From a virus: 64,000 bases of DNA. The stretch is from positions 43,026-107,025 of the IMG/VR virus record IMGVR_UViG_3300036945_000814; one strand, written 5' to 3'. The notes beneath the pieces are model-generated. The model saw nothing but the letters and a program-made list of their open reading frames with translations. It was not told where the DNA came from and did not search any database. Of the stretch, positions 1 to 20,200 are shown piece by piece. The translations under genes were made by a program, and so were the position numbers. Position 1 is the stretch's first letter; every line of letters starts with the position of its first letter.

Positions 1-3000
1 CCGGTCCCGGCGGAGGCGGGCCGGGCGCGCGCACCGCGGACGAGCACAAGCAGCAGGCGGCGGCCACGGACGCTGTCGCCGACAAGCACGAGGCGGCCGG
101 AAACACCAAGCTGGCGACGGTGTACCGCACCGCCGCTGACGCATCACGCAAGGCAGCGGCCTCGGCCCCGGCGAAGCCCGGCGCGGCGCCTGCGGCGCAC
201 GATGACGACGTGTTCGCACCGATGGGATCGGCCACGAAGTCTCTGTCGGCGGTGTGGGATCGGTTGTCCGCGTGGCACCCGTCGCCCATGTGGGCGGGCG
301 AGGACATCGGCATGAGCTTCGGCCACCTTCTGAGCAAGGCGATGGGCGTCGAGCAGGCCGGGCACAAGTACATCAAGCGCACAGCCAAGGCCGGCGGCGG
401 GTACGACTACGTCTACGCCGACGAGCCCCACAGCAAGGAAACGCTCAAGGGTGCGCCCATCGGGTCGACCTTGACGGCGCTGCACAATGGATCGTCGGCG
501 ACGTACACGAAGAAGGGCAAGGACGACTGGCACGGCGCCACCGGCGGCCCGATCTCGTCGGGATGGTTCGTGGGCAAGCCCGGAATGCTCACGCACGGCC
601 CCGCACACCCCGAGCCCGTCCACGCGCCGGCGCCGGCGCCCGTCGCAGCTCCGCCGGCACCGAAGCCCACGGCCTCGAAGCCTGCCGGCAAGCCCGTGCA
701 GGGCAGCCTGTTTGACATGCTGACGGCGCCCGCCCCGGCGGCCGAGCGCCCCAACAACTTCGAGACGATGCCCGACAAGCCGGCGGCGTCACCGATGGCG
801 GAGGCCGTGAAGGAAGCCGAGAAGCAGCCGGCGACGTTCGAGGTGCAGGCCGCTGCGGCCATCGACGACGCGAACGCCGCCGACGACCGCGGCGACGAGG
901 CCGCCCACCGCGAAGCAAGCAAGCGCCTCGCCGAGATCCGATCTGCGGCCGCCGAGGCCGAAAAGCCCGCAGCGCCCGAGCGCGACCGCCCCAACAACTT
1001 CGTCACCATGCCGGATCCCGAGCCCGGCGAGGCCAAGCCGAAGGCGCCGTCGGCCGCCGAGAAGACGAAGCGCGAGAAGTTCGAGGAAGCCAAGGCCAAG
1101 GCCGGCGCAGCCTCACCGATGGCCGAAGCGACGAAGGAAGCCACCAAGCAGCCCGCCGACGTGAGCGGCGCGTGGAAGCTCACCTACGACGCGGAGGCGG
1201 AAGACGCGGAAGAGGCCAAGATCAGCGAGCGCCACGCGAAGTTTCTGGAGGACAAGAAGAAGGCCCTCGCCGTCGCCGAACGCGCTCAAAAGAGCGCGCA
1301 GCACAGCATCGACTACGACAAAGAGCACTTCAAGATGAAGCGCGACGGCGTGCCGTGGGCCGCGAAGCCGACGCAGCTCAAGTCGCTGCAACTGCGCACC
1401 GCAGAGCTGGCGCACGCCAAGATGGATCTTGAGTACTCCACGCAGCGTTTTGCAGGCGCCGCCAAAGAGCGAGCGGAGCAGCGCGCCACCCGCAAGGCCG
1501 CCGCGGAGCGCCATGTGCGTGAAGCCCCGGAGCGCACGAAGGTCGCAGCCGCGGCCCGCGAGCGCATCGCCGCCGAAGAGGCACGCCAGAAGGCGGCCCG
1601 GCTCGTGATGACCGAGTCGACGAAGACCTCCCGCCAGCGCGAGCGCGAGACGGGTGAGCACATCGCCGCTTCGGCAAAGGACCGCTCAGACGAACGTCGC
1701 ATGATCACGACGGGCGACCTTGGATCGATGACGTTCTCCGACGCGCACCGTCTCGTGAACAAGCGGAACGCGATGCCGGTCTACGGCGCCGACGAGTTCC
1801 AAGCCAAGGGCGCGAGCCCCGGCGCGGCCCACATGGGCCTCGCGCTGGCGAACCTCATCGCGCCGTCGCCGCCCGAGGACAGTGACGACGCCCGCCGCCG
1901 GTACCTTGAGGGCATCCGCCTCGTGCATGGCGTGCTGGACAGCGCGAACACCGTCGCCGACTACGCCGAGGCGCGCAAAGAGCTTGCGGCCATGCACAGC
2001 GGCGACAACGTCCCGAAGACGGAGATCCATTCAGCCGTCAAAAAGACGGCTGACGAAAAGGCGGCTGACGTCAGAAAATACCAAGCGGACTACCGCGCTT
2101 GGCAGTCCTCCCACAGCGGCACTCGCCCCGAGTCGCCGCAGGACTATCACGGCATCACCACCTACCCCGGAAACTACATCCGCGAGGTGTTGACGCCCCG
2201 TGTGAAGGCGCAAGATCCAGACCTTGAGGTCGGCTACGAGTACGTCGATTCTGGCGGCGCCGGTGAGCGTCTGTCGTTCTTCACCTATTCCAAGTCGAGG
2301 AAAGAGGCGATGCGCAAGACCATCGACGCCCTCGGCAAGAGGTTCGTCGATCATGTGGTCGGCGACGGGAAGGTCTGGAACGACGCGAAGGCCAAGGCGC
2401 AGGAAGCCGAAGACATGGGCCTTGCCGGGTGGGATCACCTCGACAAGACCGACGAGGAAAAGGCACGAGCGCGGGAAGCCACCAAAGCCGAGAAGGCGAA
2501 GCTGGCGGAGAACGAGAGTGGCAGCGGCAAGGAAACCAAGCTCCGCTGGCGCCGGTCGATCTCGAAAAAGCCCGCCGTGATCGGCGCCAAGGTCACGATC
2601 ACAGACTCGGACCCCGAGCGGTTCCGCAAGACCTTCAACTTCCGTGGCGAGCAGCCCGGCGAGGCCATCCCCGACGCCGAGCTGAATCACCACCGCAAGT
2701 ACGCCGAAATGGCGTTCCACGACCTCGCCGACGTGCTCGGCATCGAGCCCCGGCAGGTGTCGATGAACGGTCGGCTCGCGATGGCGTTTGCCGCGCGCGG
2801 CAAGGGCGGAGCGATGGCCCACTATGAGCCGGCGGAAAAGGTCATCAACGTCACCCGGTTCGCAGGTGCCGGTACCGTCGCCCACGAGTGGGGGCACTTC
2901 ATGGACAACATCGTCGCCGAGCTGCACCGAGGTGGGTCCACCAAGAGCGCCGTGTACGCATCCGCGGGTGAGGGCGAGGGGATGCCGGCGGAGCTTGCCG

Positions 3001-3593
3001 CGGCCTACGCGAAGTTCAACGCCGCGCTGAAAGAGCCGAACCCCAAGACGATCGAACGCTTGAAGAAGGATCACGCCGACCTCGACAAAGAGTACGAGGA
3101 CACGCGGAAAATGCTGAGAGAACACCCCGCGAACACGAGGGCCGACAAGACACCCGAGCAGCGCAAGGCCGACGTGGACAGCTACAACGTGATCGTCAAG
3201 AACCTTGGGCACATTTCCACGCAGCAAAAGCTCATCCAAAACTTCCTGCGCAACCCGACGTCGGACTACATGCACGACGCCATCGGCCGCGACGGCGGAA
3301 GGCGCGGCAAGTATTGGTCGAACCCGCAGGAGCTTTTCGCCCGCGCCTTTGAGAGTCATGTGCAGCACAAGCTCGAAAGCCAAGGCCGGCGCAACAGCTA
3401 CCTCGTCGACGGCGCTGTCGGCCCCGGCAGCCCCTACCCGCAGGACGATGAGCTGTCGAAGATCCACGGCGCGATCGGTGGCATCATCACGGCCATTCAC
3501 GGCGCCAAGCTCTTCGAGAAGGCCCTCAAGGCGCTATCGTCTGTCCCGCTGACGGCGCGGCGGCGCGGCCCCAAGCTCGTGATCGCCGCTTAG
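1..3593 (+). CDS. Large polyvalent protein, 5'-truncated; low-complexity N-half, C-terminal zincin-like metallopeptidase (HEWGH) plus LPD1-like domain; probable capsid-internal/ejected protein
   Basis: The frame is open from nt 3 to the window edge upstream of the 120 call. Motifs: SMNGRLAMAFAARGKGGAMAHYEP...GAGTVAHEWGHFMD and YWSNPQELFARAFESHV, typical of phage/plasmid polyvalent proteins. Confidence 0.8.
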   Translation, partial: GPGGGGPGARTADEHKQQAAATDAVADKHEAAGNTKLATVYRTAADASRKAAASAPAKPGAAPAAHDDDVFAPMGSATKSLSAVWDRLSAWHPSPMWAGEDIGMSFGHLLSKAMGVEQAGHKYIKRTAKAGGGYDYVYADEPHSKETLKGAPIGSTLTALHNGSSATYTKKGKDDWHGATGGPISSGWFVGKPGMLTHGPAHPEPVHAPAPAPVAAPPAPKPTASKPAGKPVQGSLFDMLTAPAPAAERPNNFETMPDKPAASPMAEAVKEAEKQPATFEVQAAAAIDDANAADDRGDEAAHREASKRLAEIRSAAAEAEKPAAPERDRPNNFVTMPDPEPGEAKPKAPSAAEKTKREKFEEAKAKAGAASPMAEATKEATKQPADVSGAWKLTYDAEAEDAEEAKISERHAKFLEDKKKALAVAERAQKSAQHSIDYDKEHFKMKRDGVPWAAKPTQLKSLQLRTAELAHAKMDLEYSTQRFAGAAKERAEQRATRKAAAERHVREAPERTKVAAAARERIAAEEARQKAARLVMTESTKTSRQRERETGEHIAASAKDRSDERRMITTGDLGSMTFSDAHRLVNKRNAMPVYGADEFQAKGASPGAAHMGLALANLIAPSPPEDSDDARRRYLEGIRLVHGVLDSANTVADYAEARKELAAMHSGDNVPKTEIHSAVKKTADEKAADVRKYQADYRAWQSSHSGTRPESPQDYHGITTYPGNYIREVLTPRVKAQDPDLEVGYEYVDSGGAGERLSFFTYSKSRKEAMRKTIDALGKRFVDHVVGDGKVWNDAKAKAQEAEDMGLAGWDHLDKTDEEKARAREATKAEKAKLAENESGSGKETKLRWRRSISKKPAVIGAKVTITDSDPERFRKTFNFRGEQPGEAIPDAELNHHRKYAEMAFHDLADVLGIEPRQVSMNGRLAMAFAARGKGGAMAHYEPAEKVINVTRFAGAGTVAHEWGHFMDNIVAELHRGGSTKSAVYASAGEGEGMPAELAAAYAKFNAALKEPNPKTIERLKKDHADLDKEYEDTRKMLREHPANTRADKTPEQRKADVDSYNVIVKNLGHISTQQKLIQNFLRNPTSDYMHDAIGRDGGRRGKYWSNPQELFARAFESHVQHKLESQGRRNSYLVDGAVGPGSPYPQDDELSKIHGAIGGIITAIHGAKLFEKALKALSSVPLTARRRGPKLVIAA

Positions 3594-3595
3594 GC

Positions 3596-3640
3596 GTCTC
3601 ACGGTTGACACTACGAATGGAGCGCCTACAATGGTTCGCA
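3596..3640 (+). promoter_or_regulatory. Sigma70-type promoter, probably leaderless
   Basis: GTCTCA-CGG-TTGACA(3605-3610)-N16-TACAAT(3627-3632)-7 nt-ATG(3640); no SD before that ATG. Confidence 0.75.
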
Positions 3641-6600
3641 TGACCACACACGACACCATCGAAGACGCTTCCTTCGGTTTGCTGCTCAAGGCCGACATCG
3701 ACGACGCCCTCGACGATCTCGAAAAGGCTTTCGGGTCGGAGCGGGCCGGCCACAAGTACAGCTCCCGCCGACGCAACGCGAAAGGCGAGTGGGAGTACGA
3801 GTACGCCACCGACAAGACGAAGGCGCACGCGCAAATGGCGTTCACCTTCGCCGCGGCGCACGGCACCCCCGAGCAGCAGGATCGCGCCCTCGACGTGCTC
3901 AAGCGCGTCGAGCCGGACAGGTGGCCCGACCACGTCCACGCGGCCAACGTCGCGCACGAGGCCGCGGTCATCCACGCGGCGAACGTCGCCCACGAAGCGG
4001 CCGCCCGACCCCTGCCACCATCGCCAGCGCACGAGCACAGCCCCCCGGCCGCCGCCGCGCCCCCTGCCGTCGTGAGGTTCACGCAGGGCGAGCCCAAGCC
4101 CGCCGTCGCCGCGGCCCGTGCGCTGGATGCCTCCCGTGCGAGCCTGATCCGCGCTGGCATCGGCCTGCGCGCCAACGCAGAAGAGAAGACCCCTATCGAG
4201 GCCGTGGCCGGCCGCGCGGCCGCGCTTCGCAGCTCCGCCTCGTCGCTTTTCAATGAGTCGATCCGCATGGGCATCGTGAACGACGACCCGCGCACCGCGC
4301 GGAAGTTCACGGCCGAGGAACATCGGGCGCTGGCCGCCGCGCACACCGCCCTCTTCGACGAGTTCCGCGAGCTGTACGCGCGCTCGATGACGATGCGCAT
4401 TCGCCCGCCCTCCGGCATGACCGCCGCCGACGCCGATGCGCTCCGCTCCCAGCTCGAACGCGACTTCAAGGGGCACGCCAAGCTCGCTCAAGCCCACAAC
4501 GACGCCGCCAACGCGGCGTCGGGCAAGCCCGCACCCGCGGCCGCTGTGCCGCTCGTGGTCGCGCCTGTGGCGACTTCGGTCGCTCCGGCGCTGGACGCCG
4601 GCCCGGTGCAGCTCATGGACGCCGCCGCCCGCCTCATCGCCGAGCGTGCGAGCGGCGCGCCGCCGGCGTTCAAGGCCGTCGACAACAACCGCGTCACCAT
4701 CGGTGGCGTCAAGATGATCGTGCAGGGTGGCTTCCTCGGCGACGCTCCCGCGCACCGCGCGTGGGCGGAGACGGCCGGCACGTTCTCGGCCGACGCGCAG
4801 CACTTCGACGGCGGCCGGGCCTACCGCGTCGCCACCGAGGCGGAGCGTGTGGCCGCCGTGGCGATGATCCCGCGTCTCCGCGGCTCCGTGAACGTCAACG
4901 CGCCCGCACCGGCCCCTGCCCCGGCGCCCGTCGTCGCCGAGCCCGTGCGCCCCGTCGACGACTTCACCGGCGCGTTCAGGGCGCTGAGTGACGGCAGCGG
5001 CGCCGAAGAGATCGTGACGCTCCCGTCGGGATCCAAGATCGGGCTGTCCTACGTCAGCGGACAGGCCAAGGCGCGCCCCGTCGGAGGCGGCATCGGCCGC
5101 AAATGGGATGCGACCGCGACGAAGCGCGCCCTCGCCGCCTTCGAGGCCAAGGTCGCCGCCCTCGGCCCCGCGTGGCACGCCGCCCACAACGCCATGTACG
5201 GCGTCGCCGCCGCCCCGACGCCGCTCGTGGTGGCGCCCGTGGAGACGGCCGCGCCGAAGCGCAAGCGCGCCAACAACTTCGAGACGATGCCCGACGGCGA
5301 CAGGCCCAACAACTTCGACACGATGCCCGAGGAGATCAAAGACCCGTCGCCGCGCGCCACAAAGATCCGAGAAAACCGCGAAGCTCGCGAAGCCGAAGCC
5401 GCGTTGGAAGCCGGAGCCGAGCGACTGACGGGCGAAGAACGCCACGCCGCCCTGACCCGCATGGGCCAACACTTGCACGAGGTGCAGGACTTCCGGGCCG
5501 GCAAAGACGACACGGGCATGAGCGGCGCCGACATGCTGACGTGGCGCCGATCGACCACCGCACCCCGCAAGGCCAGCGTCCTCCGCAAGTACCGCCGCCA
5601 GCTCGTCGAGAGTTTCGGCGACCTCTACTTCAAGGCCGGGCTGCACGAGAAGGAGCCGATCCCCAAGGGGCACGTTCCTGCCGTCGGCGAATGGACCGAG
5701 CGCGGCGGGCTCGTCATCAAGGCCGACGGCTACCTCGGGACGAAGTTCAACGCATGGAAGAACCTGCTCAAAGAGCACGGCTTTCGCTGGAATGGATCAC
5801 GCGGCGACGAAAGCGCCGACGGGATGCACGCAGAGAAGGCGGCGCTGCTCGACATCCCCGGCTTCATCGAGGCGGCGAACAAGATCGGGATCCATGTCGA
5901 GATCCCCGAGAAGCCCGAGGTCGCCCTCGATGCGCCAGCGGCGGCCAACGAGCCCGAGGCGCCCCTGCCCACGCCCGAGCGGCCGTCGGCGGATCGCCCG
6001 ACGACCACCGAGGACACGCAGCGGGTCATCAACGCCATTCGCGCCAAGCAGGGCCAGCGCGGCACCGTCGCCGTCACCGTGAAGCCCGACGGCAAGTTTG
6101 CTTTCTACGCCGTCGACTACCGCAAGACCGAGGTGCCCGGCTCGTTCAACCACATCATGTCGAACAAGAACGGGCAGATCACCGGGCTCATGGAGGTCGA
6201 CTCCAAGGACGCTTTCTCGCGCACCACCTACGACGCCGCCCTCGTGACCGAGGCGCTTGGCAAGCTCCGCGACGCCAACCCGACCTTCCATTTCTACATC
6301 GACCCGAAGGCCGCCGCCGCCATCGACAAGGCCGGCGCCGACAAGGCCGCAGCCGAGAAGCCGATCCCAGAAGTCGAGGCCCTGCTTGCCGACGGCTTCG
6401 CGCTCAAGCCCTACCAGAACGCGATGGTGCGGTTCCTCGACAGCAACGACGGCAACGCCATCGTCGGCGACGAAATGGGCCTTGGCAAGACGCTGCAATC
6501 GCTCGCGTGGGTGGCGAAGAACAACAAGAAGGCCATCGTCGTCGTCCCCAAGGTCGTGCGCCGCACTTGGATCGAAGAGGCGCACAAGTTTTTCCCCGGA

Positions 6601-7962
6601 CACTTCAACGCGAAAGAGCTGCGATCCAAGGATCTGCTCACGAAGAAGAAGGCCAAGGCCGGCAAGGCCGACGCCGGCGGCCTCTCGTTCATCGACGAGC
6701 TGATGGCAACCGACAGCCCGATGGATCTCACGGGCAAGAACCTCGTGACGGTCAACTACGAGTCGCTTGAGAAGTTCATGCCCTACCTCAAGGCCGCCGG
6801 GTTCGACACGATCATCGTCGACGAATCGCACCGCGCGAAGAACCCGAAGGCGAAGACGACGCAGGTGATCCAAGCCATCGCGAAGACGATGAAGCATCGC
6901 ATCCTCATGTCCGGCACCGCGGTCAAGAACGGCAAGGATGAGCTTTTCACGCAGCTCGAAATGGTGAAGCCCGGCCTGTGGGGCTCGGCGAAGGAGATCA
7001 AGTTTTCCACGCATGGCGCTGCGTGGAACAAGATGCGGGACCACTACCTCGCGCGATCCAAGAAGAACGTGCTCAAGGATCTCCCCGAGAAGACGACCAC
7101 GATCAGCCTGCTCTACGCCCCCGGCGCGCCGGACATCGGCAAGATGAAAGAGCCGACGCCGCCACCGGCGAACGCCACCGCGAAGCAGATTGCGGCCTAC
7201 GAAAAGGCCGCCGAAGAGTGGGAATCGTGGATGGAAGGGGCCGCCGACGGCGACGGCATCAACGAGGACATCGGCGATCTCATGGACGGCGGGTCGTCGA
7301 TCGGCGAGTACAGCCGCGTCCGCGGCCAGCTCGCGCTGGCGAAGGTCGACGGCACCGTCGACATGGTGCAGGAGATCCTTGATAGCTCCGACAGCAAGGT
7401 GCTCGTGTTCACCGAGTCGGTTGCCGCGGCGAAAGCCATCGCCGAAAAGCTCGGCAGCGAGGCGATCCTGCACTACGGGCAGCAGAGCGACGACAAGCGC
7501 GAAGACGCGAAGAAGGAGTTTCAGCGCGAGGGATCCCCCAAGCGCGTGTTCGTCTCGACCCGCCCGTCGCTGGCCGTCGGCGCCACGCTCACGGCCGCCG
7601 ACAAGGTCGTGTTCAACGACCTCCCGTGGACGGCCGCCGACGTGCGCCAAGCCGAGGACCGCGCGCACCGCGTGGGCCAGAAGAACGCCGTCAACGTCTA
7701 CTGGAACGTCGCCGAGGACAACAAGTTCGACGAGAACGTCTCCGCCATCCTCCGCCGGAAGTACGACCTCTCGAAGAAGATCAACGAGGGGCAGCAGCTT
7801 TCGCCCGAAGAAAAGGCGTGGATGAGCAAGCCCGTCACCATGCGCGAAGTCATGGATCGCATCAAGGGCAAGCCCTCCGGCCCGCCCGAGCCCAAGATCG
7901 AAAAGAGCGCCAAGGCGCAGCTCCGCGACATGACCCGCGCGCTGATCAAAGCGGCAAGCTAG
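3640..7962 (+). CDS. Polyvalent protein with C-terminal SNF2/SMARCAL1-like SF2 ATPase
   Basis: LKPYQ, GDEMGLGKT (Walker A), IIVDESH (DExH), MSGT, QAEDRAHRVGQ at ~6400-7780; long Ala/Pro-rich N-terminal part. Start moved from 3631 to 3640 on promoter spacing. Confidence 0.85.
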   Translation: MTTHDTIEDASFGLLLKADIDDALDDLEKAFGSERAGHKYSSRRRNAKGEWEYEYATDKTKAHAQMAFTFAAAHGTPEQQDRALDVLKRVEPDRWPDHVHAANVAHEAAVIHAANVAHEAAARPLPPSPAHEHSPPAAAAPPAVVRFTQGEPKPAVAAARALDASRASLIRAGIGLRANAEEKTPIEAVAGRAAALRSSASSLFNESIRMGIVNDDPRTARKFTAEEHRALAAAHTALFDEFRELYARSMTMRIRPPSGMTAADADALRSQLERDFKGHAKLAQAHNDAANAASGKPAPAAAVPLVVAPVATSVAPALDAGPVQLMDAAARLIAERASGAPPAFKAVDNNRVTIGGVKMIVQGGFLGDAPAHRAWAETAGTFSADAQHFDGGRAYRVATEAERVAAVAMIPRLRGSVNVNAPAPAPAPAPVVAEPVRPVDDFTGAFRALSDGSGAEEIVTLPSGSKIGLSYVSGQAKARPVGGGIGRKWDATATKRALAAFEAKVAALGPAWHAAHNAMYGVAAAPTPLVVAPVETAAPKRKRANNFETMPDGDRPNNFDTMPEEIKDPSPRATKIRENREAREAEAALEAGAERLTGEERHAALTRMGQHLHEVQDFRAGKDDTGMSGADMLTWRRSTTAPRKASVLRKYRRQLVESFGDLYFKAGLHEKEPIPKGHVPAVGEWTERGGLVIKADGYLGTKFNAWKNLLKEHGFRWNGSRGDESADGMHAEKAALLDIPGFIEAANKIGIHVEIPEKPEVALDAPAAANEPEAPLPTPERPSADRPTTTEDTQRVINAIRAKQGQRGTVAVTVKPDGKFAFYAVDYRKTEVPGSFNHIMSNKNGQITGLMEVDSKDAFSRTTYDAALVTEALGKLRDANPTFHFYIDPKAAAAIDKAGADKAAAEKPIPEVEALLADGFALKPYQNAMVRFLDSNDGNAIVGDEMGLGKTLQSLAWVAKNNKKAIVVVPKVVRRTWIEEAHKFFPGHFNAKELRSKDLLTKKKAKAGKADAGGLSFIDELMATDSPMDLTGKNLVTVNYESLEKFMPYLKAAGFDTIIVDESHRAKNPKAKTTQVIQAIAKTMKHRILMSGTAVKNGKDELFTQLEMVKPGLWGSAKEIKFSTHGAAWNKMRDHYLARSKKNVLKDLPEKTTTISLLYAPGAPDIGKMKEPTPPPANATAKQIAAYEKAAEEWESWMEGAADGDGINEDIGDLMDGGSSIGEYSRVRGQLALAKVDGTVDMVQEILDSSDSKVLVFTESVAAAKAIAEKLGSEAILHYGQQSDDKREDAKKEFQREGSPKRVFVSTRPSLAVGATLTAADKVVFNDLPWTAADVRQAEDRAHRVGQKNAVNVYWNVAEDNKFDENVSAILRRKYDLSKKINEGQQLSPEEKAWMSKPVTMREVMDRIKGKPSGPPEPKIEKSAKAQLRDMTRALIKAAS

Positions 7963-7992
7963 AGTAGATCCGTTCACCCCCGAGGACCGCCC

Positions 7993-10251
7993 ATGAGCAC
8001 CAACGAAGCCACCGCCCTCTTGAACGACTCGCCGCTGCTCAAGTCGGACGACGGCCACAAGTACGTCAAGCGTGAGGGGATGCCCGGCGCCTACAAGTAC
8101 ACCTACGCCGACGGCAGCACCGGCCACACCGAGCACAAGCCCACGTTTCAGCTCGGCGCCGCGGCGCATCAACAGGGCCTCTTCGGCGCCAGCTCCTACG
8201 AGAAGAAGCCGGCGAAGCCGAAGGCCCCCGATCCCTTGGCGCACCGGCAGGTCGATATGTTCGCGCCGAAGCCGGCAGCCGCCACAGCGCCCGCGCCCGC
8301 GCCCGCGCCCGAGCCCGCGTCGAAGTTTGACGAGGTCGTTTCAGCCGCCTACACGCAGCGCGCCCGCGAGGCCGGCGCTGCCTCGGCCCATGCTCGCGAA
8401 ATGGATCAAGCCGGCTACCACGGAGGCATCAGCAACGCCCACAGGCACGCCGCTTCCGCGCATCGTCGAGCCGGCGAGGCCGCCATCGCCCTTGGTCACG
8501 GCGCCAACACCGCCATGCACGGCAAGCAGATGGCGCACCACGAGAAGCAGGCGGATCTCGACGACGACATCGCCGCACGCCACGCCGCAACGCGCAGCGG
8601 TGCCGCAAAGGAGGCTTCCGACCGCGTCATGGCTATCGCCGACAAGGCGAAGAAGACGACGATGGTCGACACGCCCGCGGGGCCGCGTGAGTCCACGCCG
8701 GGCGGGCTCAAATGGTACGGCGACAAGCCCCACAACCCGGAGGCGCTGGCCGCGGCGCGTGAGGCTTACGGCAGCGCCAAGTCCGAAGGCCGCAGCGACA
8801 AGCTGGCCCACAGCAAGGCGTCGAAGGCCGCGCAGAAGCACCTCGGCGGCGTCACCGGCGCGTGGGATCACGCGACGCACGCTCAAGAGCTGCACGATCA
8901 CGCGAACGGGAACCGGCACGAGATCCCCGGCGGCGCCGACCGCGCAGGGCCACCGCCCCGTGCGCCCGCGAAGAAGAAGTCCCCGAAGGCGCAGGCCACG
9001 CACGCGGCCAAGGTCGCCGACGCCGCTTCGGCGAAAGAAAACGCCGCCGATCACGCGCACGACATGGGATCCAAGGCGACCACCCTTTCCACGGCCGCCC
9101 ACCGCCTTTCCAACGCCGGCGGCGACATGGGAAGCGCGAACCACCAAGCCGCGCACGAGGCGCACAAGGCCGCCGCCGCTGCCAACCGCGAGGCCGCCTC
9201 GGCGTTCCAGCAGCCGGGCGCCAGCGTGAGCATTGCAGGCAAGTCGTTCTCGTCGCTGCACGAGGAGCGCGCGAAGGCGCACGACGAGAAGGCCGGCGAT
9301 CACTGGCGCGAGGCGGTCAAGGCGCGCTCCGACGAAGAGGGTGAGCCATTCAGCCAAGCCGCGACGCACAAGGTCGACGGCACGAAGAAGACGGATCTCG
9401 ACAAGCTGCACGAAGGTGTGGCGGACCTCAAGCCATCCGCCATGCGCAGCGACGGGCACTTCACGCGGGCTGCCGACAAGTTCAAGGCGCTGCGCGACCA
9501 CATCCACGAGAAGGTCGGCGCCCATCCCGCGCACGCGCACGCGAGCAAGGCGTTCACCCTCGCCAACACCGCGGCGCAGTCGTCCGGCAGCTACGACGTC
9601 AAGACGCGCCGCGAGCACATGGAAGGCGCGCAGCAGCACGCGCAGAAAGCGATCGACGCGATGAAGGGCATGGGCAAGAGCATGGATCACGAGGTCGGAA
9701 TCTCCCGCTTCCAAGACCGCTCCGCCGGCCGTCCCGCCGCCGGCGGCGTGTACGACGGGCTCGGCTCCGGCATGGTCGATCCCACCGTGGATCGCCCGCG
9801 CTACGCCGGCCGCGCCCCCAATCAGGTGATCGCCGTCGGCGTCGCTGGCGACAGCAACGACCGCAACACCTTCGCCTACCAGAAGGGCCGGCAGTCCGGC
9901 GCCACGTTGGATCTGGCGAAGTCGGCGATGATCGGCGCCGTCAAGGACGGCTACCGGATGCAGCTCATCGCCGTCGCCGACGCCAACCCCGTTGCCTCGC
10001 TCATCATGCGCGGCCGCGTGGAAGGCGAGCGCCCGATGGTGCCCGCCGAGCTGCGCAAGAGTGTGCAGCTTTCCGCGCCCGACCCCGACGCCGTCGTCGC
10101 CTTCGCCGCGGCTGCCCTCAAGGCTGCCAGCGACCGCAACCCGCAGCTTCGGGAAGGGCTCTCGCGCCTCGGCGTCTCCCGTGCCACCCTGTACGCGACC
10201 CTTGAGGCGCTGGCCCTCACACCGGCAGGGATGACCGCCGGCAACCGATAG
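7993..10251 (+). CDS. His/Ala-rich hypothetical head-associated protein
   Basis: 752-aa ORF with SD-like GAGG; carries the same LLKS..GHKY tag as the two preceding genes; lies directly before portal. Confidence 0.7.
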   Translation: MSTNEATALLNDSPLLKSDDGHKYVKREGMPGAYKYTYADGSTGHTEHKPTFQLGAAAHQQGLFGASSYEKKPAKPKAPDPLAHRQVDMFAPKPAAATAPAPAPAPEPASKFDEVVSAAYTQRAREAGAASAHAREMDQAGYHGGISNAHRHAASAHRRAGEAAIALGHGANTAMHGKQMAHHEKQADLDDDIAARHAATRSGAAKEASDRVMAIADKAKKTTMVDTPAGPRESTPGGLKWYGDKPHNPEALAAAREAYGSAKSEGRSDKLAHSKASKAAQKHLGGVTGAWDHATHAQELHDHANGNRHEIPGGADRAGPPPRAPAKKKSPKAQATHAAKVADAASAKENAADHAHDMGSKATTLSTAAHRLSNAGGDMGSANHQAAHEAHKAAAAANREAASAFQQPGASVSIAGKSFSSLHEERAKAHDEKAGDHWREAVKARSDEEGEPFSQAATHKVDGTKKTDLDKLHEGVADLKPSAMRSDGHFTRAADKFKALRDHIHEKVGAHPAHAHASKAFTLANTAAQSSGSYDVKTRREHMEGAQQHAQKAIDAMKGMGKSMDHEVGISRFQDRSAGRPAAGGVYDGLGSGMVDPTVDRPRYAGRAPNQVIAVGVAGDSNDRNTFAYQKGRQSGATLDLAKSAMIGAVKDGYRMQLIAVADANPVASLIMRGRVEGERPMVPAELRKSVQLSAPDPDAVVAFAAAALKAASDRNPQLREGLSRLGVSRATLYATLEALALTPAGMTAGNR

Positions 10252-10259
10252 GAGCCCGC

Positions 10260-12391: not shown

Positions 12392-12436
12392 CATCGGATC
12401 TCAACACTACGGGCGTGCCCCGAAGGAGAAGCAGCA

Positions 12437-13116: not shown

Positions 13117-13137
13117 CGTCGCGGAGGAGATTCCCCC

Positions 13138-16100
13138 GTGGCGCTGTGGACTGCCGATCAGCTTGCGAAAGTCCGCGCCGTCATCGCGCGGCACCATGCG
13201 GCGATCACCATCGCCATCTTCGGACACAAGGCCCTGCCCGACGACCTCGTCAAAGACCTCCGGGCCTCCGGCATCCCCGTGCCCACCGGCCCGCAGCTCA
13301 TCGACGACGCCTTCACCTACGGGCAGCTCGTTGCCCTCCTTCGCGATCCGAAGCTCGCCACCAAGAGCCCCGCCGAGATCGCCGAGCTTGTGGCCGCCCG
13401 CAAGATCCCGTTGCAGCTCACGCCGTCTGAGAAGGCCGCCGTCGAAGTCGCGCGCACGCACGCCGGGCAGTACGTCGTCGGCCTCGGCACCCGCGTCGCG
13501 GGGCAGGTCATGGCCGCCGTCACCGGCGCCGAGGCCAACCTCACCCCCGAGCGCATGGTCGAGATCATTCAGGACAAGACCGCCGGCAACCTCGCCCGGC
13601 GCGAGACGATCGACAGCCTGAGATCCGACCTCGGGCACGCGATGGGCAACTGGACCCGCGACTGGCAGCGCATCGCGATGACCGAGTCGAACAACGCGAT
13701 CCAAGAAGGCACCGCGGCCACCATCGAGAAAGAGCACGGCGTCGACGAGCTTGTGTCGAAGATGCCGCGCCCCGACGCCTGCCCGGACTGCAAGCGCCTG
13801 TACCTCCGCGGCGGCGAGCCCATCATTTTCAAGCTCTCCGAGCTGCGTGCCAACGGCAGCAACGTCGGCCGAAAGAAGCGCGACTGGAAGCCGACCATCG
13901 AGGCCGTCCACCCGTGGTGCGGATGCGTGCTCGTGCGAATCCCCGCGGGCATGGTCTGGGAGGACGGCGAGCTTGTCGTCGACAAGGCGGAGAAAAGCCA
14001 AGCGGGTATTGAAATGCCCGCCCGGCCCGCATTTCAATACCCGCTGCGGAAAGCCGCCCGCAAGCTCCACGGTCGCCTCACGTTTGCCGGGATGCCGATC
14101 AGCATCGAGAACCGCCGGGGCTCGTTCCGCCATTGGTTCGACCCGGTCGCCAAAGAGCACGGCAAGACCAAGGTGCTTTTCCCCTACGGCTACATCCGGC
14201 TCACCGAGGCCGCCGACGGCGACCACGTCGACGTCTACGTCGGCCCGCTCAAGACGGCGCCCAACGTCTACGTCGTCCACCAACGCAAGAAGAAACCGGA
14301 TGGATCTTTCGGCGGCTACGACGAGGACAAGGCCATGCTCGGTTTCCCGTCGGCCAGCGCGGCGAAGCGGGCCTACCTCGCGCACTACAGCGACCCGAGA
14401 TTCTTCGGGGCGATGACGACCATGACCGTCGCCGAGTTCAAGGTAAAGCTCGTGGAGAACCGGGGGCGAAAGATCACGAAGGCATGGCGCGAGCCGACGG
14501 CGCTCGTGATCGACATGCTGGCGAAGAGCTATGCCCCGTGCGTGCGCTGTGGCGAAATGTCGAAGGAGTCGAGCAGCGACGGCGCCGAGCCGTGCTGGAC
14601 GTGTCGCAAGGCGCTCGAAGCCGCCGGTACGCCCTACGTTCGCGCCGGGTGGAAAGACGGCGTGGAGCTGGCGAAAGCCGGCGGCCCGTACATCGGCCCC
14701 AAGGGCGGCAAATGGGCCGACCCCGAGCACACCGTTGCGTGGCAAGAGCCCGGCGGCGTCGAGAGCCTGCCCCACCTTGAGGACGAAAAATGGGATGACG
14801 GCACCGTCGTTCGCTGGCGGCAAAGCCCGTTCGTTCACGCGCCGCCCCGGTCAAAGCCGCAGCTCCCGTCGTCAACGCCAACCTCGATCGAGCACGTTCC
14901 CCTCGACAAGCTGCACGCAACGCAGAAGCGCGTCACCGAGGGGGGCGTGCAGAAGTACCTCGACAAGCCGTTGAACGCGGCCGCCGACGACAAGCTCGAT
15001 CTCCCGCTCGTCACCGTCGACAAAGACGGCAAGCACTTCATTCAGGACGGGCACCACCGTCTCACGGCCGCCAAGCTCCGCGGCGAGGCGTCCGTTCCCG
15101 TCCGGGTGCAGCGAGAAAAGGCCGAGGAGAAGAAAACGCACGAACCGCTGGCGCCCGACTACGAGCCGAAGGTCGGCGACGAGCACGCGATCCCCGGCCC
15201 GCACGGCATGGCCGCGTTCACGGCGCGCATCGAGCACGTCGGCGACGACCATGTGCGGATCTCGCAGAACCACGGCGACGAGCGTCGCGGCACAGGGGCT
15301 CACGGTACAAGGGTGCCGAAAGCGGCGGTGTCGCACTTCGTCAACGACCTCCGCGGCGTCGTTCACGGCCCGCCGTCGAGCGACCCGCGCGTGCAGGCGG
15401 TACTCGACGGCAAGGCCGAGCACCTTGGCAAAGGCGACGACGGCATCGCCTTCCGCGTCGGCGACACCGTCGTCAAGGCGTCGACGACGGTGCCCTACCA
15501 ACCGTTCAACGAAAACTACTTGACGCCGGCGACGGCGGCCGAGCGCATGGTCGAGCAGGTGAACACGTCGAACGCGATGCACGCCGACGGCGTGCCCGGC
15601 ATCATGCGTTCCGAGCTTGTCCACAACGGCGACAAGGCGTTTCAGATCAAGCCCTACGTCGAGATCCCCGACAAGCTCACCCGCGAACAACTCGACAGCG
15701 TCGCCGATTCAGTGCTCAAGGCGCACGCCGCCGGCTACACGTTCAACGACGAGATCCAAGTAGGCGTTCACGAGGGCAAGCTCGTTCACTTCGACACCGG
15801 CAAGGCGGCGAAGGCGCCCGACGAGAAGCGCCTCAAAGAAAGAGCCGAAGACGACGAGGAACGCCTCAAAGACCTCTTCGCCAAGCACGGCGAGAAGTTC
15901 CAGACGACGAAAGAGAAGCACAACCCGCTCATCGAGTGGGAGGAAATGGCGTCGCGAGATCCAAAGAAGATGACAGATGCCGAGCGCAGCAAGCACGCCT
16001 CGCTTCTGTGGATGCACAGCCTCAAGGTGAAGTCGTTTCGCGATCGGGCTGATCCCGTCGACAAAGACTTCTACGACGTGGTCTACAACAACCAAGAGAT

Positions 16101-16596
16101 CGAAGACGCCATCAATCGGTTCAAGTCGCCGATCCGAGAAGCCATCGACGTGCTCAAGTCTGCGTTCGATTCCATGAGCGCCGGTGAATCCATCGAGCAG
16201 CTTGGCCGCTCGACGTCGCGACTCGGTATGATGAGCTGGCGTGGAAACGAAGACTCACCCCGGCCCGAGCGCCCCGCGGACATCGTCGGGATCACCGACG
16301 ACATGGGGCTCACCGTCAAGGGGCGGAAGAAGCGAAAGAAGAAGCACGCCGAGGACAAAGCCGACGCGCGACGCAGCCGGTTGTCGCCCGCAGACCGCTT
16401 CGCCGCCGCCAAGCGGATGCCCAAAAAGGACGCCGTGAAGCCCCTCGCCCCCGACGCGCTCAAGGAAGCCCGTGAGCAGTCGCGAGACGCCGTGGAAGCC
16501 AAGCGCGAGCGCATCCGCGACGACCTCGCTCGGCGGCAGGCGAACAAGCCCCCGATGGATCCCATCCGCATTGCGCGAGCGAAGGGAGAATCGTGA
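13138..16596 (+). CDS. MuF-family head morphogenesis polyvalent protein: MuF + inorganic pyrophosphatase-like + Zn ribbon + ParB/Srx-like + kinase-like domains
   Basis: MuF: RDWQRIAMTESNNA..CPDC..HPWCGC. InPase-like: ISIENRRGS..YGYI..ADGDHVDVYVGP..YDEDKAMLGF. CVRC..CWTC. ParB-like: PLDKLHATQ..IQDGHHRLTAA. Kinase-like: LGKGDDGIAF..VVK..HFDTG. Confidence 0.85.
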   Translation: MALWTADQLAKVRAVIARHHAAITIAIFGHKALPDDLVKDLRASGIPVPTGPQLIDDAFTYGQLVALLRDPKLATKSPAEIAELVAARKIPLQLTPSEKAAVEVARTHAGQYVVGLGTRVAGQVMAAVTGAEANLTPERMVEIIQDKTAGNLARRETIDSLRSDLGHAMGNWTRDWQRIAMTESNNAIQEGTAATIEKEHGVDELVSKMPRPDACPDCKRLYLRGGEPIIFKLSELRANGSNVGRKKRDWKPTIEAVHPWCGCVLVRIPAGMVWEDGELVVDKAEKSQAGIEMPARPAFQYPLRKAARKLHGRLTFAGMPISIENRRGSFRHWFDPVAKEHGKTKVLFPYGYIRLTEAADGDHVDVYVGPLKTAPNVYVVHQRKKKPDGSFGGYDEDKAMLGFPSASAAKRAYLAHYSDPRFFGAMTTMTVAEFKVKLVENRGRKITKAWREPTALVIDMLAKSYAPCVRCGEMSKESSSDGAEPCWTCRKALEAAGTPYVRAGWKDGVELAKAGGPYIGPKGGKWADPEHTVAWQEPGGVESLPHLEDEKWDDGTVVRWRQSPFVHAPPRSKPQLPSSTPTSIEHVPLDKLHATQKRVTEGGVQKYLDKPLNAAADDKLDLPLVTVDKDGKHFIQDGHHRLTAAKLRGEASVPVRVQREKAEEKKTHEPLAPDYEPKVGDEHAIPGPHGMAAFTARIEHVGDDHVRISQNHGDERRGTGAHGTRVPKAAVSHFVNDLRGVVHGPPSSDPRVQAVLDGKAEHLGKGDDGIAFRVGDTVVKASTTVPYQPFNENYLTPATAAERMVEQVNTSNAMHADGVPGIMRSELVHNGDKAFQIKPYVEIPDKLTREQLDSVADSVLKAHAAGYTFNDEIQVGVHEGKLVHFDTGKAAKAPDEKRLKERAEDDEERLKDLFAKHGEKFQTTKEKHNPLIEWEEMASRDPKKMTDAERSKHASLLWMHSLKVKSFRDRADPVDKDFYDVVYNNQEIEDAINRFKSPIREAIDVLKSAFDSMSAGESIEQLGRSTSRLGMMSWRGNEDSPRPERPADIVGITDDMGLTVKGRKKRKKKHAEDKADARRSRLSPADRFAAAKRMPKKDAVKPLAPDALKEAREQSRDAVEAKRERIRDDLARRQANKPPMDPIRIARAKGES

Positions 16597-16814: not shown

Positions 16815-16874
16815 TCCAGACCCTAGCCTGACCATCGACACCCAATGGCCTTGACCACGAACGGTCAAAAGAGG

Positions 16875-16913
16875 CGGGCGGTACAGCGAAAGCTGCGCCG
16901 CCCGTTTTCGTTT
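16875..16913 (+). terminator. Terminator-like hairpin upstream of the protease gene
   Basis: CGGGCGGT-A-CAGC-GAAA-GCTG-C-GCCGCCCG followed by TTTTCGTTT. Confidence 0.55.
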
Positions 16914-16926
16914 CAGGAGATCCATT

Positions 16927-17769
16927 TTGCAGGAATCAGACGCTCCGGCATTCAACTTCGACTTCGACATCGAAGTGTTCGAGAAGGCCGGCGTCGCTCC
17001 TGAGAAGGCGCGCCGCATCGGCGGCTTCGTGTCCACGAGCGCCCTCGACAAGCAGGGCGAGCGCGTCTTGCAGGAAGGGCTCGACTTTTCCCCGTTCCTG
17101 CAAGACGGGTGGTTCAACGACAACCACAGCAAGGCCACCGCCGACATCGTCGGCTTCCCCGAGACGGCCAAGCTCATCCGCAAGGGCGAGCGCCTGCCGA
17201 GCGGCACGTCGGCCGACAAGACCGGATGGTTCGTCGAGGGCTACCTCCTGCAAGGGCACCCGCCGAGCGACCGTATCTGGGAGCTGGCGAAGGCGTTGCA
17301 GAAGACGCCGCGGCGTCTCGGGTTCTCCGTCGAGGGCCGCGTCACGCAGCGGATGAACAAGGCCGGCGAGCCCATCGTCGCCCGCGCCGTCGTCAAAAAC
17401 GTCGCGGTCACCAACTGCCCCGTCAACAATCAGACGTCGCTCGAAGTGCTCGCCAAGAGCCTGAGCGCCATCGAAATGAGCAAGGCGCTTGAGGTCGGGC
17501 CGCCGCCCGGTCCCGCGAGCGACCCCGGCTCCATCCCCGCCGGCGTGCCCCTGTCGGGCATGGGCGCGGGCCGCGTGCTCATGCCTGAGTCGATCGGCGG
17601 CTACGCCGGCGCCTTCGGCAACCCCAACGGTGCGCAGCCCCGGAAGAAGAAGAAGAAGAAGCTCACCAAGAGCGCCGCGTTGGATCTCATTCACAGCCGC
17701 TATCCGGGCATCACCAACCACACGGCGGCGCGGATCTTCCGCTTCGCTGTCGCACACGCCTCTCACTGA
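16927..17769 (+). CDS. Prohead (maturation) protease
   Basis: IGGFVSTSALDKQGE..GLDF..GWFNDNH..LGFSVEG..VAVTNCPVN; AGGAGA SD with TTG start; lies between portal and capsid. Confidence 0.88.
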   Translation: MQESDAPAFNFDFDIEVFEKAGVAPEKARRIGGFVSTSALDKQGERVLQEGLDFSPFLQDGWFNDNHSKATADIVGFPETAKLIRKGERLPSGTSADKTGWFVEGYLLQGHPPSDRIWELAKALQKTPRRLGFSVEGRVTQRMNKAGEPIVARAVVKNVAVTNCPVNNQTSLEVLAKSLSAIEMSKALEVGPPPGPASDPGSIPAGVPLSGMGAGRVLMPESIGGYAGAFGNPNGAQPRKKKKKKLTKSAALDLIHSRYPGITNHTAARIFRFAVAHASH

Positions 17770-17789
17770 GAGAGCAGGAGAAGAACCAC

Positions 17790-18698
17790 ATGGCGAAGAA
17801 GCACCCCACCCTCGACACCGAGCCCCTTTTCAAGAGCGACGACGGCGACCTCGACGACGAGCCCGGTATGCCCGAAGCCGAGGACGCCGACGAGGACGAC
17901 GAGGACGAGGACGGCGACGGCGTCGACGACGAGGAAGAGGAGCAGATGAAGTCGGATCTCACCGAGGACACGCTCATCAAGGCGCTCGACGAGATGGACA
18001 GCATCGCCGTCGCCGCGTCCAACGGAATCTCGCCGCGGGAGCAGGCCCTCGCCTCCAAGCTCGCGTCTGGCACCCCCCTCACCAAGTCGGAGCGTGCCGA
18101 GCTGGCCGCGGCCGGCGAACCGATGGCCAAAAGCCACAAGGAGTCTTTCGTGGAGAATCCGCAGATCGCGCAGGGTTTCGAGGTTTCCGAGTTCCTCGAC
18201 GCCGCGCTCACCAAGGTCGCCGAAGCCCTCGACACCAACCGCGAGGAAATGACCAAGTCCTTCGGCGAGGTCGGCGAGTTCAACCGCGCCCTCGCCAAGT
18301 CGCTCAACGCCCTCGGCGCCGTCGTCATCGCGCAGGACAAGAAGATCCGGCAGCTCGAAAAGAGCCTCGCCGGTGAAGCTCCCCGGCGCGTGGTCGAAGC
18401 GGCCCCCGCCAAGGGCGTCACCTCCTCGCGCAGCTCCGTCGGCCAGCGGGTCAACGACAGCGGCGGGATGCGCAAGTCGCAGGCCGCCGGCGGCGCCACG
18501 CTCACCAAGGGCATGATCCTCGACACCCTCGACGATCAGATCGCCAAGAGCGACGGCCAGCGCGGCGTGGTCGACGGCGTCGACCTCGTGCTCGAAAGCT
18601 CGCGCTACGAGACGACGCAGCTCCTCTCCCCCGACGCCATGCGCCTCGTCTGCAAGGCGCGCGGGATCGACCCCTCCACCCTCGGGCTGAACGGCTGA
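17790..18698 (+). CDS. Scaffolding protein
   Basis: Acidic N-terminus, helical, many hydrophobic-x-K-S sites; between protease and capsid. Confidence 0.75.
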   Translation: MAKKHPTLDTEPLFKSDDGDLDDEPGMPEAEDADEDDEDEDGDGVDDEEEEQMKSDLTEDTLIKALDEMDSIAVAASNGISPREQALASKLASGTPLTKSERAELAAAGEPMAKSHKESFVENPQIAQGFEVSEFLDAALTKVAEALDTNREEMTKSFGEVGEFNRALAKSLNALGAVVIAQDKKIRQLEKSLAGEAPRRVVEAAPAKGVTSSRSSVGQRVNDSGGMRKSQAAGGATLTKGMILDTLDDQIAKSDGQRGVVDGVDLVLESSRYETTQLLSPDAMRLVCKARGIDPSTLGLNG

Positions 18699-18760
18699 TC
18701 GCCGGCTGAATCCCGTTCACGACCACCGTTCACTTCACAGAAGATCCAAGGAGAATCACC

Positions 18761-20200
18761 ATGAGCTACGGTACTTTTGTCGGCGCTTCCGACTACGACG
18801 GCATCGAAGGCTTCGGCTCGGCGAGCGCCGAGGAAATGCAGAACCTCAACAAAGCCTTGCGCTCCGGTCAGGACCGCAACGCCCCCGGCACCGTCGTCGC
18901 TGGCGACGGCTTCACCCTCAAGCCTGAGAGCTTGGATCGCACGTTGAAGAACGTGACGTACCGGATGGAGCACATCCAGTTCTGGAAGTTCCTCGACAAG
19001 ACCCCGGCCTACAACACGGTCGAGGAGTACAGCCGGCTCCGTGAGTACGGCAACGGCGTCGCGGCCTTCATCGAGGAAGGCGAGCTGCCCGCCGAGGACG
19101 ACGCGACCTACTCGCGTGAGTTCAACATCGTGAAGTACATGGGCACGACCCGGCGCATCACGCATGTGATGCAGACCGTGCGCACCCACATCGGCTCCGC
19201 GGTCGCGCAGGAGACGGTCAACGGCACCATGTGGCTGCTCCGGCAGGTCGAGAAGGCGCTGTTCTACGCCGACTCGTCGATGGTCCCGGCCGAGTTCGAC
19301 GGCCTCTTCACGCAGCTCGAAGCGCAGTCGCCGAACATCGTCGACATGCGCGGCAAGCCGCTCAACCAAGACGTGATCGAGGAAGCCGCGCACGTCATCC
19401 GGGCTTCGCCCAACTACGGCATCCCGACGGATCTGTGGATGGCCGACGGCGTCTACAGCGACCTCGCGCGCCTGTTCTACCCCACGCAGCGCAGCGAGAT
19501 CCCGACCCCGGCCAGCGCCGGTGACGGGTACGTCGGCTTCGCGGTGAAGGGGATGCGCACGCAGGCCGGCCCGATCCGGTTCCAGCCCGACGTGTTCATC
19601 GAGCCCGGTCGCGCCCCCGCGGCCGCTGGCATCGGCGACATCGCCAAGCGCCCCGGCCTCCCCACCATCGGCGTCGCCGCCGCTGGCGCCCCCGGTGGCG
19701 GTGAGGTGTCCCTGTTCGTCGGCGCCAGCGAGGACTTCCGCTACCGCGTGGTCGCGAAGAACCGCTACGGCCTGAGCGTCCCCGTGGACGTGAACGGCGG
19801 CGCCGCGATCACCGTGGCCGCCGGCCAGAAGGTGTCGTTCACGATCACCGACGGTTCGCCGTTGGCCTCGTGCTACGTCATCTACCGCACCAAGGCGAAC
19901 GGCCTGCTCGTCGACGCCGTCGAAATGATCACCGTGCGTCGCACCGGCGCCGTCACGGCTTTCGGCGATCTCAACAAGGATCTGCCCGGCACCACGAAGG
20001 CCGCGCTGTTGCAGGGCAACCGCGAGAACATCATGGTCAAGCAGCTCGCGCCGTTCACGCGCATCCCGCTCGCCACCGTCGACACGTCGATGCGTTGGTC
20101 GCAGGTGCTCTACCTGACGCTCACCCTGCACAGCCCGAACAAGAACGTGCTGTTCAAGAACGTCGGCCGCATCGAGGGCACCAAGAACCTCGCCGTCTGA
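18761..20200 (+). CDS. Major capsid protein
   Basis: LNKAL..LKPESLDRTLK..PAYNTVEEY..FIEEGELP..EFDGL..QLAPFTRIPLA resembles SPO1/Twort-type capsid proteins; strong SD; terminator downstream. Confidence 0.92.
   Translation: MSYGTFVGASDYDGIEGFGSASAEEMQNLNKALRSGQDRNAPGTVVAGDGFTLKPESLDRTLKNVTYRMEHIQFWKFLDKTPAYNTVEEYSRLREYGNGVAAFIEEGELPAEDDATYSREFNIVKYMGTTRRITHVMQTVRTHIGSAVAQETVNGTMWLLRQVEKALFYADSSMVPAEFDGLFTQLEAQSPNIVDMRGKPLNQDVIEEAAHVIRASPNYGIPTDLWMADGVYSDLARLFYPTQRSEIPTPASAGDGYVGFAVKGMRTQAGPIRFQPDVFIEPGRAPAAAGIGDIAKRPGLPTIGVAAAGAPGGGEVSLFVGASEDFRYRVVAKNRYGLSVPVDVNGGAAITVAAGQKVSFTITDGSPLASCYVIYRTKANGLLVDAVEMITVRRTGAVTAFGDLNKDLPGTTKAALLQGNRENIMVKQLAPFTRIPLATVDTSMRWSQVLYLTLTLHSPNKNVLFKNVGRIEGTKNLAV

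Follow-up and report, generated by a model that had tools for sequence, protein, structure and literature searches.

The window analysed here is a stretch of 64,000 nucleotides, the last 64 kb of a 107,025-bp virus record (IMGVR_UViG_3300036945_000814; 67% GC). Genes were called on the + strand only. Four giant proteins are encoded between the large terminase and the prohead protease. They total 5684 amino acids (aa) from about 17 kb of genes, or ~16% of the genome. Several effector or LPD domains are combined per large polypeptide, and the genes lie beside the portal and terminase genes, as is the case for polyvalent proteins. The question raised by this locus is whether the protease that matures the head also acts on these proteins. 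An earlier note on this DNA had proposed a protease code, hydrophobic-x-K-[S/A], that divides the cargo into a packaged polyprotein. All of the sites that it listed (major capsid protein, scaffold, protease, portal, ORF1, SNF2, ORF3, and MuF border) exist where it placed them. It appears reasonably probable, judging from the genes, that the prohead protease trims packaged cargo proteins at N-terminal leaders and at junctions.

The late operon has the order TerL, ORF1, SNF2, ORF3, portal, three small genes, MuF-InPase, protease, scaffold, and major capsid protein (MCP). The large terminase is located just upstream of the window. The head genes (capsid, protease, portal, and MuF) are of the SPO1 / phage K type. 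Related genomes were used for comparison. Lineage B has a portal 85% identical to that of the window phage (lineage A), lineage C is an 89-kb contig with a portal 65% identical, and lineage D is a complete 110-kb genome with a portal 46% identical. The canonical head proteins and their sites are as follows, with a slash at the predicted cut.

10260..12020, + strand: portal protein, with N-terminal LAK/G and C-terminal VQK/S.
10416-10427, + strand: portal N-terminal site LAK/G, residue 53, kept in lineages A to C.
11934-11945, + strand: portal C-terminal site VQK/S, residue 559, kept in lineages A to C.
16927..17769, + strand: prohead protease, assemblin / T4 gp21-like fold, PHROG 1028.
16978-16989, + strand: protease site FEK/A, residue 18, N-terminal propeptide.
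17449-17460, + strand: protease site LAK/S, residue 175, end of core (Lys177 invariant).
17476-17487, + strand: protease site MSK/A, residue 184, a motif match.
17662-17673, + strand: protease site LTK/S, residue 246, after a poly-Lys run and before the C-terminal helices.
17790..18698, + strand: scaffolding protein, 302 aa, 11 motif sites.
18761..20200, + strand: MCP of the SPO1 / phage K family, predicted maturation site LNK31/A32 at 18845-18856.

The cut-site motif was scored as [LIMVF]-x-K-[SAG], with [LM]xKS as the strict form. Expected counts were obtained from composition-preserving shuffles of each protein. The claim of a protease code was borne out for the scaffold, for both ends of the protease and the portal, and for the N-terminus of the capsid protein. 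The scaffold contains 11 sites vs 1.3 expected (z 8-9), and 7 vs 0.2 for the strict form. These are LFKS, LIKA, LTKS, MAKS, MTKS, LAKS, LEKS, MRKS, and IAKS, plus LTKG and VCKA. The protease has 7 sites vs 1.4 expected (z 5) and the portal has 4 vs 1.9. Portal, protease, scaffold, and MCP pooled have 24 vs 5.9 expected, and the remaining genes of the genome pooled have 55 vs 57.6. Patterns used as controls, with Arg or Glu at P1 or with the motif reversed, were flat.

The same code was found in relatives. Scaffold enrichment holds in lineages B, C, and D as well (z 7.5-10.5), and the sites hold their positions while the adjoining residues vary. A search of IMG/VR with a MuF-domain profile gave 244 relatives, from which 80 loci were kept and 79 new loci were analysed; the family-wide statistics rest on these 79. 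These phages (loci L027-L105) form a large uncultivated family, with many contigs of 100-110 kb. Their gene order is kept as TerL, giant cargo genes, portal, MuF-polyvalent gene, often a ~2000-aa gene, protease, scaffold, and capsid. Their 33 scaffolds contain 360 sites vs 50 expected, with Lys as the top P1 residue in 32, and their proteases contain 203 vs 46. A SPO1-like Bacillus phage has 7 vs 1.0 sites in the protease, 11 vs 1.1 in the scaffold, and LNK/AL in the capsid protein. Thus, a protease code of hydrophobic-x-Lys followed by Ser, Ala, or Gly is real and family-wide. A different protease code may exist in another cargo-carrying phage. In Xanthomonas phage Rb1 (L108), hydrophobic-x-Asp-[SAG] is overrepresented in the annotated internal head protein (13 vs 6.5) and in a neighbouring M12B-like protein (9 vs 2.9).

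From the sequences, the enzyme that reads this code most likely cuts after Lys, and it appears to be a prohead serine protease of the assemblin / HK97-gp4 / T4-gp21 type. Its AlphaFold2 (AF2) model, with a mean predicted local distance difference test (pLDDT) of 81, matched the proteases of Kaposi's sarcoma-associated herpesvirus (KSHV) and human cytomegalovirus (HCMV) and T4 gp21 (5jbl, TM 0.50) in Foldseek. PHROG 1028, head maturation protease, matches it at E 3e-41. No curated family match was obtained in Pfam (including Peptidase_S78/S77), NCBIfam, or PDB sequence searches. His67, Ser134, and the site residue Lys177 are invariant among 28 aligned relatives, and His67 and Ser134 are the catalytic pair predicted from the family pattern. 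Sites mark the boundaries of the catalytic core (Lys20, Lys177, and Lys248, the last ahead of two C-terminal helices). A run of six Lys (PRKKKKKKLTK/S; window 17641-17673) stands directly ahead of the most C-terminal of the predicted self-cleavage sites; lineages A to C all have this run. The scaffold had no match in Pfam, NCBIfam, or PDB sequence searches.

The capsid protein provides a link to known structures. It is 32-34% identical to the capsid proteins of SPO1-like Bacillus phages. Homology to SPO1 gp6.1 (9vel) is full-length (E 3.5e-67) and LNK/AL is common to both. Lineages A to D and SPO1 gp6.1 all have the conserved site L[NQ]K/AL. LNK31/A32 also aligns with VVK24/S25 of Staphylococcus phage 812, of which the deposited chain 9row (439 residues) begins at Ser25 of the 463-residue full-length chain. 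An explicit statement of K/S specificity for Herelleviridae proteases was not found in the literature; the support for it is this PDB chain comparison.

The cargo genes upstream of the portal contain the following features.

1..3593, + strand: C-terminal half of ORF1, polyvalent protein with DUF5661, two GHKY modules, HEWGH, and LPD1.
330-341, + strand: ORF1 site LSK/A, just ahead of the GHKY module at 363-449.
363-449, + strand: GHKY module of ORF1.
3513-3524, + strand: ORF1 site FEK/A, C-terminal tail.
3631..7962, + strand: SNF2-helicase polyvalent protein, 1443 aa, GHKY module plus helicase.
3682-3693 and 3718-3729, + strand: SNF2 leader sites LLK/A (residue 18) and LEK/A (residue 30), followed by the GHKY module.
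3751-3828, + strand: GHKY module of SNF2.
6322-6333, + strand: SNF2 site IDK/A, upstream of the helicase core.
7897-7908 and 7942-7953, + strand: SNF2 tail sites IEK/S (residue 1423) and LIK/A (residue 1438).
7993..10251, + strand: ORF3, 752 aa, Ala/His/Lys-rich, immediately upstream of the portal.
8035-8046, + strand: ORF3 leader site LLK/S (residue 15), closing the leader MSTNEATALLNDSPLLK/S, followed by the GHKY module.
8053-8130, + strand: GHKY module of ORF3.
9670-9681, 9913-9924, and 10051-10062, + strand: strict ORF3 sites MGK/S (560), LAK/S (641), and LRK/S (687).

The full ORF1 is 2337 aa (L006:1605-8618). It starts 3420 nucleotides upstream of the window and 5 nucleotides past the stop codon of the large terminase, and its last 1196 aa are inside the window. 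It holds long Pro/Ala-rich linkers and a HEWGH zincin-like motif that is followed by LPD1. ORF3 had no family match in Pfam, NCBIfam, or PDB sequence searches.

The position of the cargo sites is what points to processing. Leader sites in the first 35 residues are found in ORF1 (LKK/S at 7), SNF2 (18 and 30), and ORF3 (15), and likewise in the scaffold, protease, and capsid protein. A site within this distance is present in 6/11 head-module genes vs 3/75 others (p 7e-5; 1.3 expected from composition). The same test in two distant genomes gave p 0.0017 and 0.0009. Across the IMG/VR loci, an N-terminal site was found in 92% of portals, 90% of scaffolds, 86% of capsid proteins, and 78% of proteases. 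It was found in 62% of large cargo-like proteins (51/82, 14.6 expected), in 27% of MuF proteins, and in 9% of neck and tail proteins (10/113). With N-termini clustered, a site occurs in 25/42 cargo-like vs 7/75 neck or tail proteins. ORF1, SNF2, and ORF3 have an N-terminal leader of ~10-30 residues that ends in the protease consensus, as in the T4 type. Lineages A, B, and C have the ORF3-type leader, MST.EA..LL.K/[SA], in common, and the sequence past the Lys is unrelated. Conservation that stops at the Lys is the pattern that a removable signal would give.

The same kind of leader is seen in a SPO1-like phage, in a 144-aa protein with 24% Lys that is encoded upstream of the portal (L026:3270-3704) and starts MDKDVLLVVMVDDLIK/G. 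This points to a small DNA-binding protein that would be packaged by a cultivable relative.

Sites are also placed at junctions. Two recurring mini-modules of ~25 residues, GHKYxxR...YxYxY and YIGP[KR]GGKWAD, are located at N-termini and between domains of many polyvalent proteins. Neither has a Pfam match at E up to 1, and tblastn with the YIGPKGGKW module gave no match in cultured phages. In lineages A to D, each of 14 GHKY or YIGP modules has a Lys site 3-21 residues upstream (13 with the strict motif and one WQK/S). Among 88 metagenomic MuF-InPase homologues, the motif is ahead of 28/32 YIGP modules, 5/6 GHKY modules, and 24/28 InPase domains. The InPase domains of three outgroup phages with other head modules (PB1-like, ECML-117, and Xanthomonas Rb1) lack the motif, which thus does not belong to that fold. 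Where genes are split or fused in relatives, the breakpoints coincide with these junctions. In lineage C, for example, the MuF domain and the part of ORF1 that spans residues 1-350 are each encoded by a gene of their own, and SNF2 is fused to InPase. The earlier idea that the motif brackets the cargo can be kept in this sense: it ends the conserved leaders of ORF1, SNF2, and ORF3 and precedes junction modules. It does not extend to whole-protein counts, which are near chance.

The fourth giant protein is encoded downstream of the portal and contains the following.

13138..16596, + strand: MuF-InPase polyvalent protein, 1152 aa, described from an AF2 model and domain matches.
13978-13989 and 14044-14055, + strand: linker sites VDK/A (residue 281) and LRK/A (residue 303), at the MuF border.
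14473-14484, 14518-14529, and 14668-14679, + strand: linker sites ITK/A, LAK/S, and LAK/A.
14689-14718, + strand: YIGPKGGKW module.

From the AF2 model and domain matches, the order of domains is MuF-like (1-283), InPase (309-447), Zn ribbon, YIGPKGGKW, ParB-like stretch, kinase fold, and basic tail. A long disordered stretch lies between the Zn ribbon and the kinase fold. The ParB-like nuclease match (residues 587-666) is weak. Residues 660-1012 (window 15115-16173) are predicted to form a Rio-like kinase fold (Foldseek: Rio2, Rio1, and further kinases). Of the CxxC ... HPxCxC motif of the MuF / SPP1 gp7 family, the forms CPDC and HPWCGC occur in the MuF-like part, with Cys, His, and Pro columns invariant in 26 homologues. 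Pfam PF04233 did not match the MuF protein of the window, and it is recorded for two InPase-bearing matches of the homologue search. The Bacillus phage homologues are annotated as minor capsid protein. In metagenomic homologues P0010, P0025, and P0028, HPWC-x-C is split by an insert of ~300 residues (start CFPAG..., end ...VHNC) that, by its sequence, looks like an intein.

The MuF protein contains 10 sites vs 5.0 expected, and the MuF-polyvalent proteins of relatives contain 552 vs 330 overall. Five of the ten sites (Lys283, 305, 448, 463, and 513) are in or at short low-confidence linkers of the model. Enrichment across all low-confidence residues was not significant (p 0.097); it is significant only in short interdomain linkers, a category chosen after the data were seen.

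Packaging, cleavage, and ejection of the cargo are inferred from motif statistics, positional conservation, the protease fold, and capsid-site homology. The proposed course of events is as follows. The cargo leaders (9-33 residues in ORF1, SNF2, and ORF3) would recruit the proteins to the scaffolding core of the procapsid, like the capsid-targeting sequences of T4. The MuF protein, which has no leader, would enter via its MuF domain. Once activated, the protease would degrade the scaffold, chopping it into peptides of about 25-30 residues (cuts at all 11 sites would leave 12 pieces of ~25 aa on average), and free itself. Judging from its site positions, it would lose its own N-terminal 20 residues and a C-terminal targeting tail. 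It would also remove 31 residues from the capsid protein and trim both ends of the portal. The protease would then remove the cargo leaders and cut a few linkers. Cuts ahead of the GHKY or YIGPKGGKW modules, of InPase, and of C-terminal tails would probably separate some domains. The cargo products would remain in the head and exit with the DNA.

Several observations weigh against this reading. The most direct is the number of cargo sites. ORF1 carries 11 sites in the full protein vs 9.7 expected and SNF2 carries 7 vs 6.8, which is chance level. The four cargo proteins pooled have 32 vs 24.1, only 1.33x. The raw density of the motif in the cargo is two-fold higher because the cargo is Lys/Ala-rich. 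The composition-corrected count thus refutes a dense code that divides ORF1 and SNF2 as a polyprotein. It does support enrichment in the scaffold, in the protease, and, for the strict motif, in ORF3 (4 vs 0.3, with 4 vs 3.1 for the full motif). ORF3 is the one cargo protein for which being cut into pieces is a fitting description, and from its sequence it resembles an internal protein that undergoes heavy processing. In relatives, the gene that directly precedes the portal often has a high density of the motif (20 vs 3.5, 23 vs 6.3, 13 vs 2.6, 16 vs 4.0, and 19 vs 3.6).

The P1' residue of cargo sites also tracks background composition (Ala > Ser), and the scaffold sites are Ser-rich; thus, many cargo copies of the motif are noise. 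In the MuF protein, Lys728, 765, 780, and 861 are inside the folded kinase-like domain of the model, and Lys780 is probably the conserved kinase lysine. Cutting there is unlikely. Placement of the sites at domain borders was claimed for this protein. On the model, about half of its sites are plausible (the five at linkers) and half are not. The motif abuts conserved modules directly (e.g., DUF5661 ends ..IEK/A), so it could be a structural part of them. In addition, the related loci are evolutionarily non-independent, and their start codons were picked mechanically. The cargo sites are non-random in position, not in number, and most other copies of the motif in ORF1, SNF2, and the kinase-like domain are due to chance or intrinsic to the fold.

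Other explanations can account for parts of this pattern. The code could be limited to the canonical head proteins, the cargo motif being a binding or targeting element or a module cap, and the cargo could be packaged uncut. The near-chance counts and the contiguity of the motif with conserved modules are in keeping with this. N4 vRNAP is packaged unprocessed (PMC5512222), and the P1 study shows N-terminal targeting of DarB and leaves removal of the N-terminus unreported (PMC9024508). However, a binding element or cap would not readily explain why the same tetrapeptide closes leaders that are followed by unrelated sequences and stands ahead of three unrelated module types. It is also missing before InPase in phages with other head modules, and it matches exactly the motif with which the scaffold is saturated. 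We regard uncut packaging as unlikely.

It is quite improbable that the polyvalent proteins are processed by a zincin-type metallopeptidase (MPTase) of their own rather than by the prohead protease. Such a domain is lacking in SNF2, ORF3, and the MuF protein, which nevertheless carry the same leaders and junctions, and the junction motif is that of the scaffold. The candidate enzyme is the HEWGH region of ORF1, where the motif is followed by LPD1. It makes an alternative processing enzyme possible, and the published model does assign release of functional units to the MPTase domain (PMC5512222). ORF1 had no match to a Pfam MPTase family even at E up to 1. The two mechanisms are not mutually exclusive. 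Finally, the sites could be coincidental in Lys/Ala-rich proteins that are unpackaged, late-expressed intracellular enzymes, and composition alone does predict 24 of the 32 cargo sites. Yet the N-terminal placement was replicated in three genomes and 79 loci, and the cargo is encoded in the interval from the terminase to the portal and protease. MuF, InPase, and LPD1 typify the polyvalent proteins that virions deliver (PMC5512222). Coincidence is hardly to be credited here.

If trimming at leaders and junctions is accepted, a broader proposal can be put forward tentatively. A modular grammar of leader, motif, and GHKY or YIGPRGGKW adaptor might allow the loading of any enzyme domain into the procapsid and its subsequent release by one protease. 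We consider this possible but rather doubtful. If true, polyvalent proteins would be true capsid-matured polyproteins, and adaptor modules at new N-termini might be handles for DNA retention or ejection.

The window also indicates what kind of phage is involved. It encodes a tail sheath and baseplate, and thus the phage is a myovirus. A DNA search found no match to the head genes among cultured phages. A portal search of bacterial and archaeal genomes found no relative, and thus there is no prophage context. The AT skew of the coding strand is 0.17-0.31 over the head and cargo genes (window 1-20000) and <0.13 downstream, in keeping with cargo, protease, and scaffold proteins that are rich in Lys, Glu, and Ala.

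Among the anti-defence candidates of phages, polyvalent proteins rank with the largest and the most common. To our knowledge, only one proposal for release of their domains has been published, in which built-in metallopeptidases process the proteins that carry them. The rule suggested by this family is readable and can be tested: a leader is joined to a Lys-specific site for the prohead protease. If the rule is true, it would predict which mature products arise from hundreds of giant phage proteins that are still uncharacterised, and packaged and non-packaged phage proteins could be distinguished from sequence alone. It would also provide a tag that can be transferred to foreign proteins to load them into SPO1/K-type capsids. 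Should the rule fail, the family would still illustrate the misreading of a protease motif in proteins rich in Lys and Ala.

In T4, the internal proteins (IPI-III and Alt) have capsid-targeting sequences that are removed by the gp21 prohead protease, which cuts after Glu. The window phage resembles T4 in its short N-terminal leaders that end in a protease consensus, in one protease predicted both to degrade the scaffold core and to trim the capsid protein, and in the assemblin / gp21 fold. The proposed delivery with the DNA would be another likeness. It differs in predicted specificity (hydrophobic-x-Lys followed by Ser, Ala, or Gly instead of Glu) and in its cargo. The T4 cargo consists of small basic proteins, whereas that of the window phage consists of giant multi-domain polyvalent proteins with internal junction sites. 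The general mechanism is not new: N-terminal capsid-targeting sequences are known from the T4 internal proteins and P1 DarB, and Iyer et al. foresaw packaging and processing for polyvalent proteins.

In P1, the first 30 residues of DarB (250 kDa) suffice for capsid targeting and darB adjoins the portal and protease genes (PMC9024508). DarB has been counted among the polyvalent proteins (PMC5512222). The likeness is one of layout: a very large helicase-containing protein of the anti-defence type is encoded beside portal and protease, and in P1 an N-terminal signal directs it to the head. No common N-terminal consensus was found among the Dar proteins by the P1 authors, and the P1 capsid protein is cut at E120/S121 (PMC9024508), whereas several cargo proteins of the window have a leader that ends in the protease motif.

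The Herelleviridae (SPO1, phage K / 812, and A511) share the homologous LNK/A capsid site and the same enrichment of the motif in protease and scaffold. Around the portal of the SPO1-like locus examined, giant cargo genes are absent. In contrast, the window phage has about 17 kb of them, 67% GC, and no cultured match at the DNA level. In phiKZ and SPN3US, the prohead protease cleaves many of the ejection proteins that are packaged (PMC7411985, PMC10052503). These belong to another phage lineage, and the genome of the window phage is much smaller.

An LPD1-bearing giant protein of 2811 aa was detected in virions of phi24B (10.64898/2026.04.10.717836). For polyvalent proteins of phages and conjugative elements, Iyer, Burroughs, Anand, de Souza, and Aravind (2017) predicted packaging, with processing mainly by built-in zincin peptidases or C-terminally fused assemblin domains (PMC5512222). 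The window phage is similar to these systems in that LPD1, InPase, DUF5661, SNF2, MuF, and ParB-like domains are combined in huge polypeptides. They are likewise encoded by late genes with portal and terminase, and the domains are extensively shuffled among relatives. It differs in that the proposed processor is a separate prohead protease acting in trans, with leaders and a readable site code.

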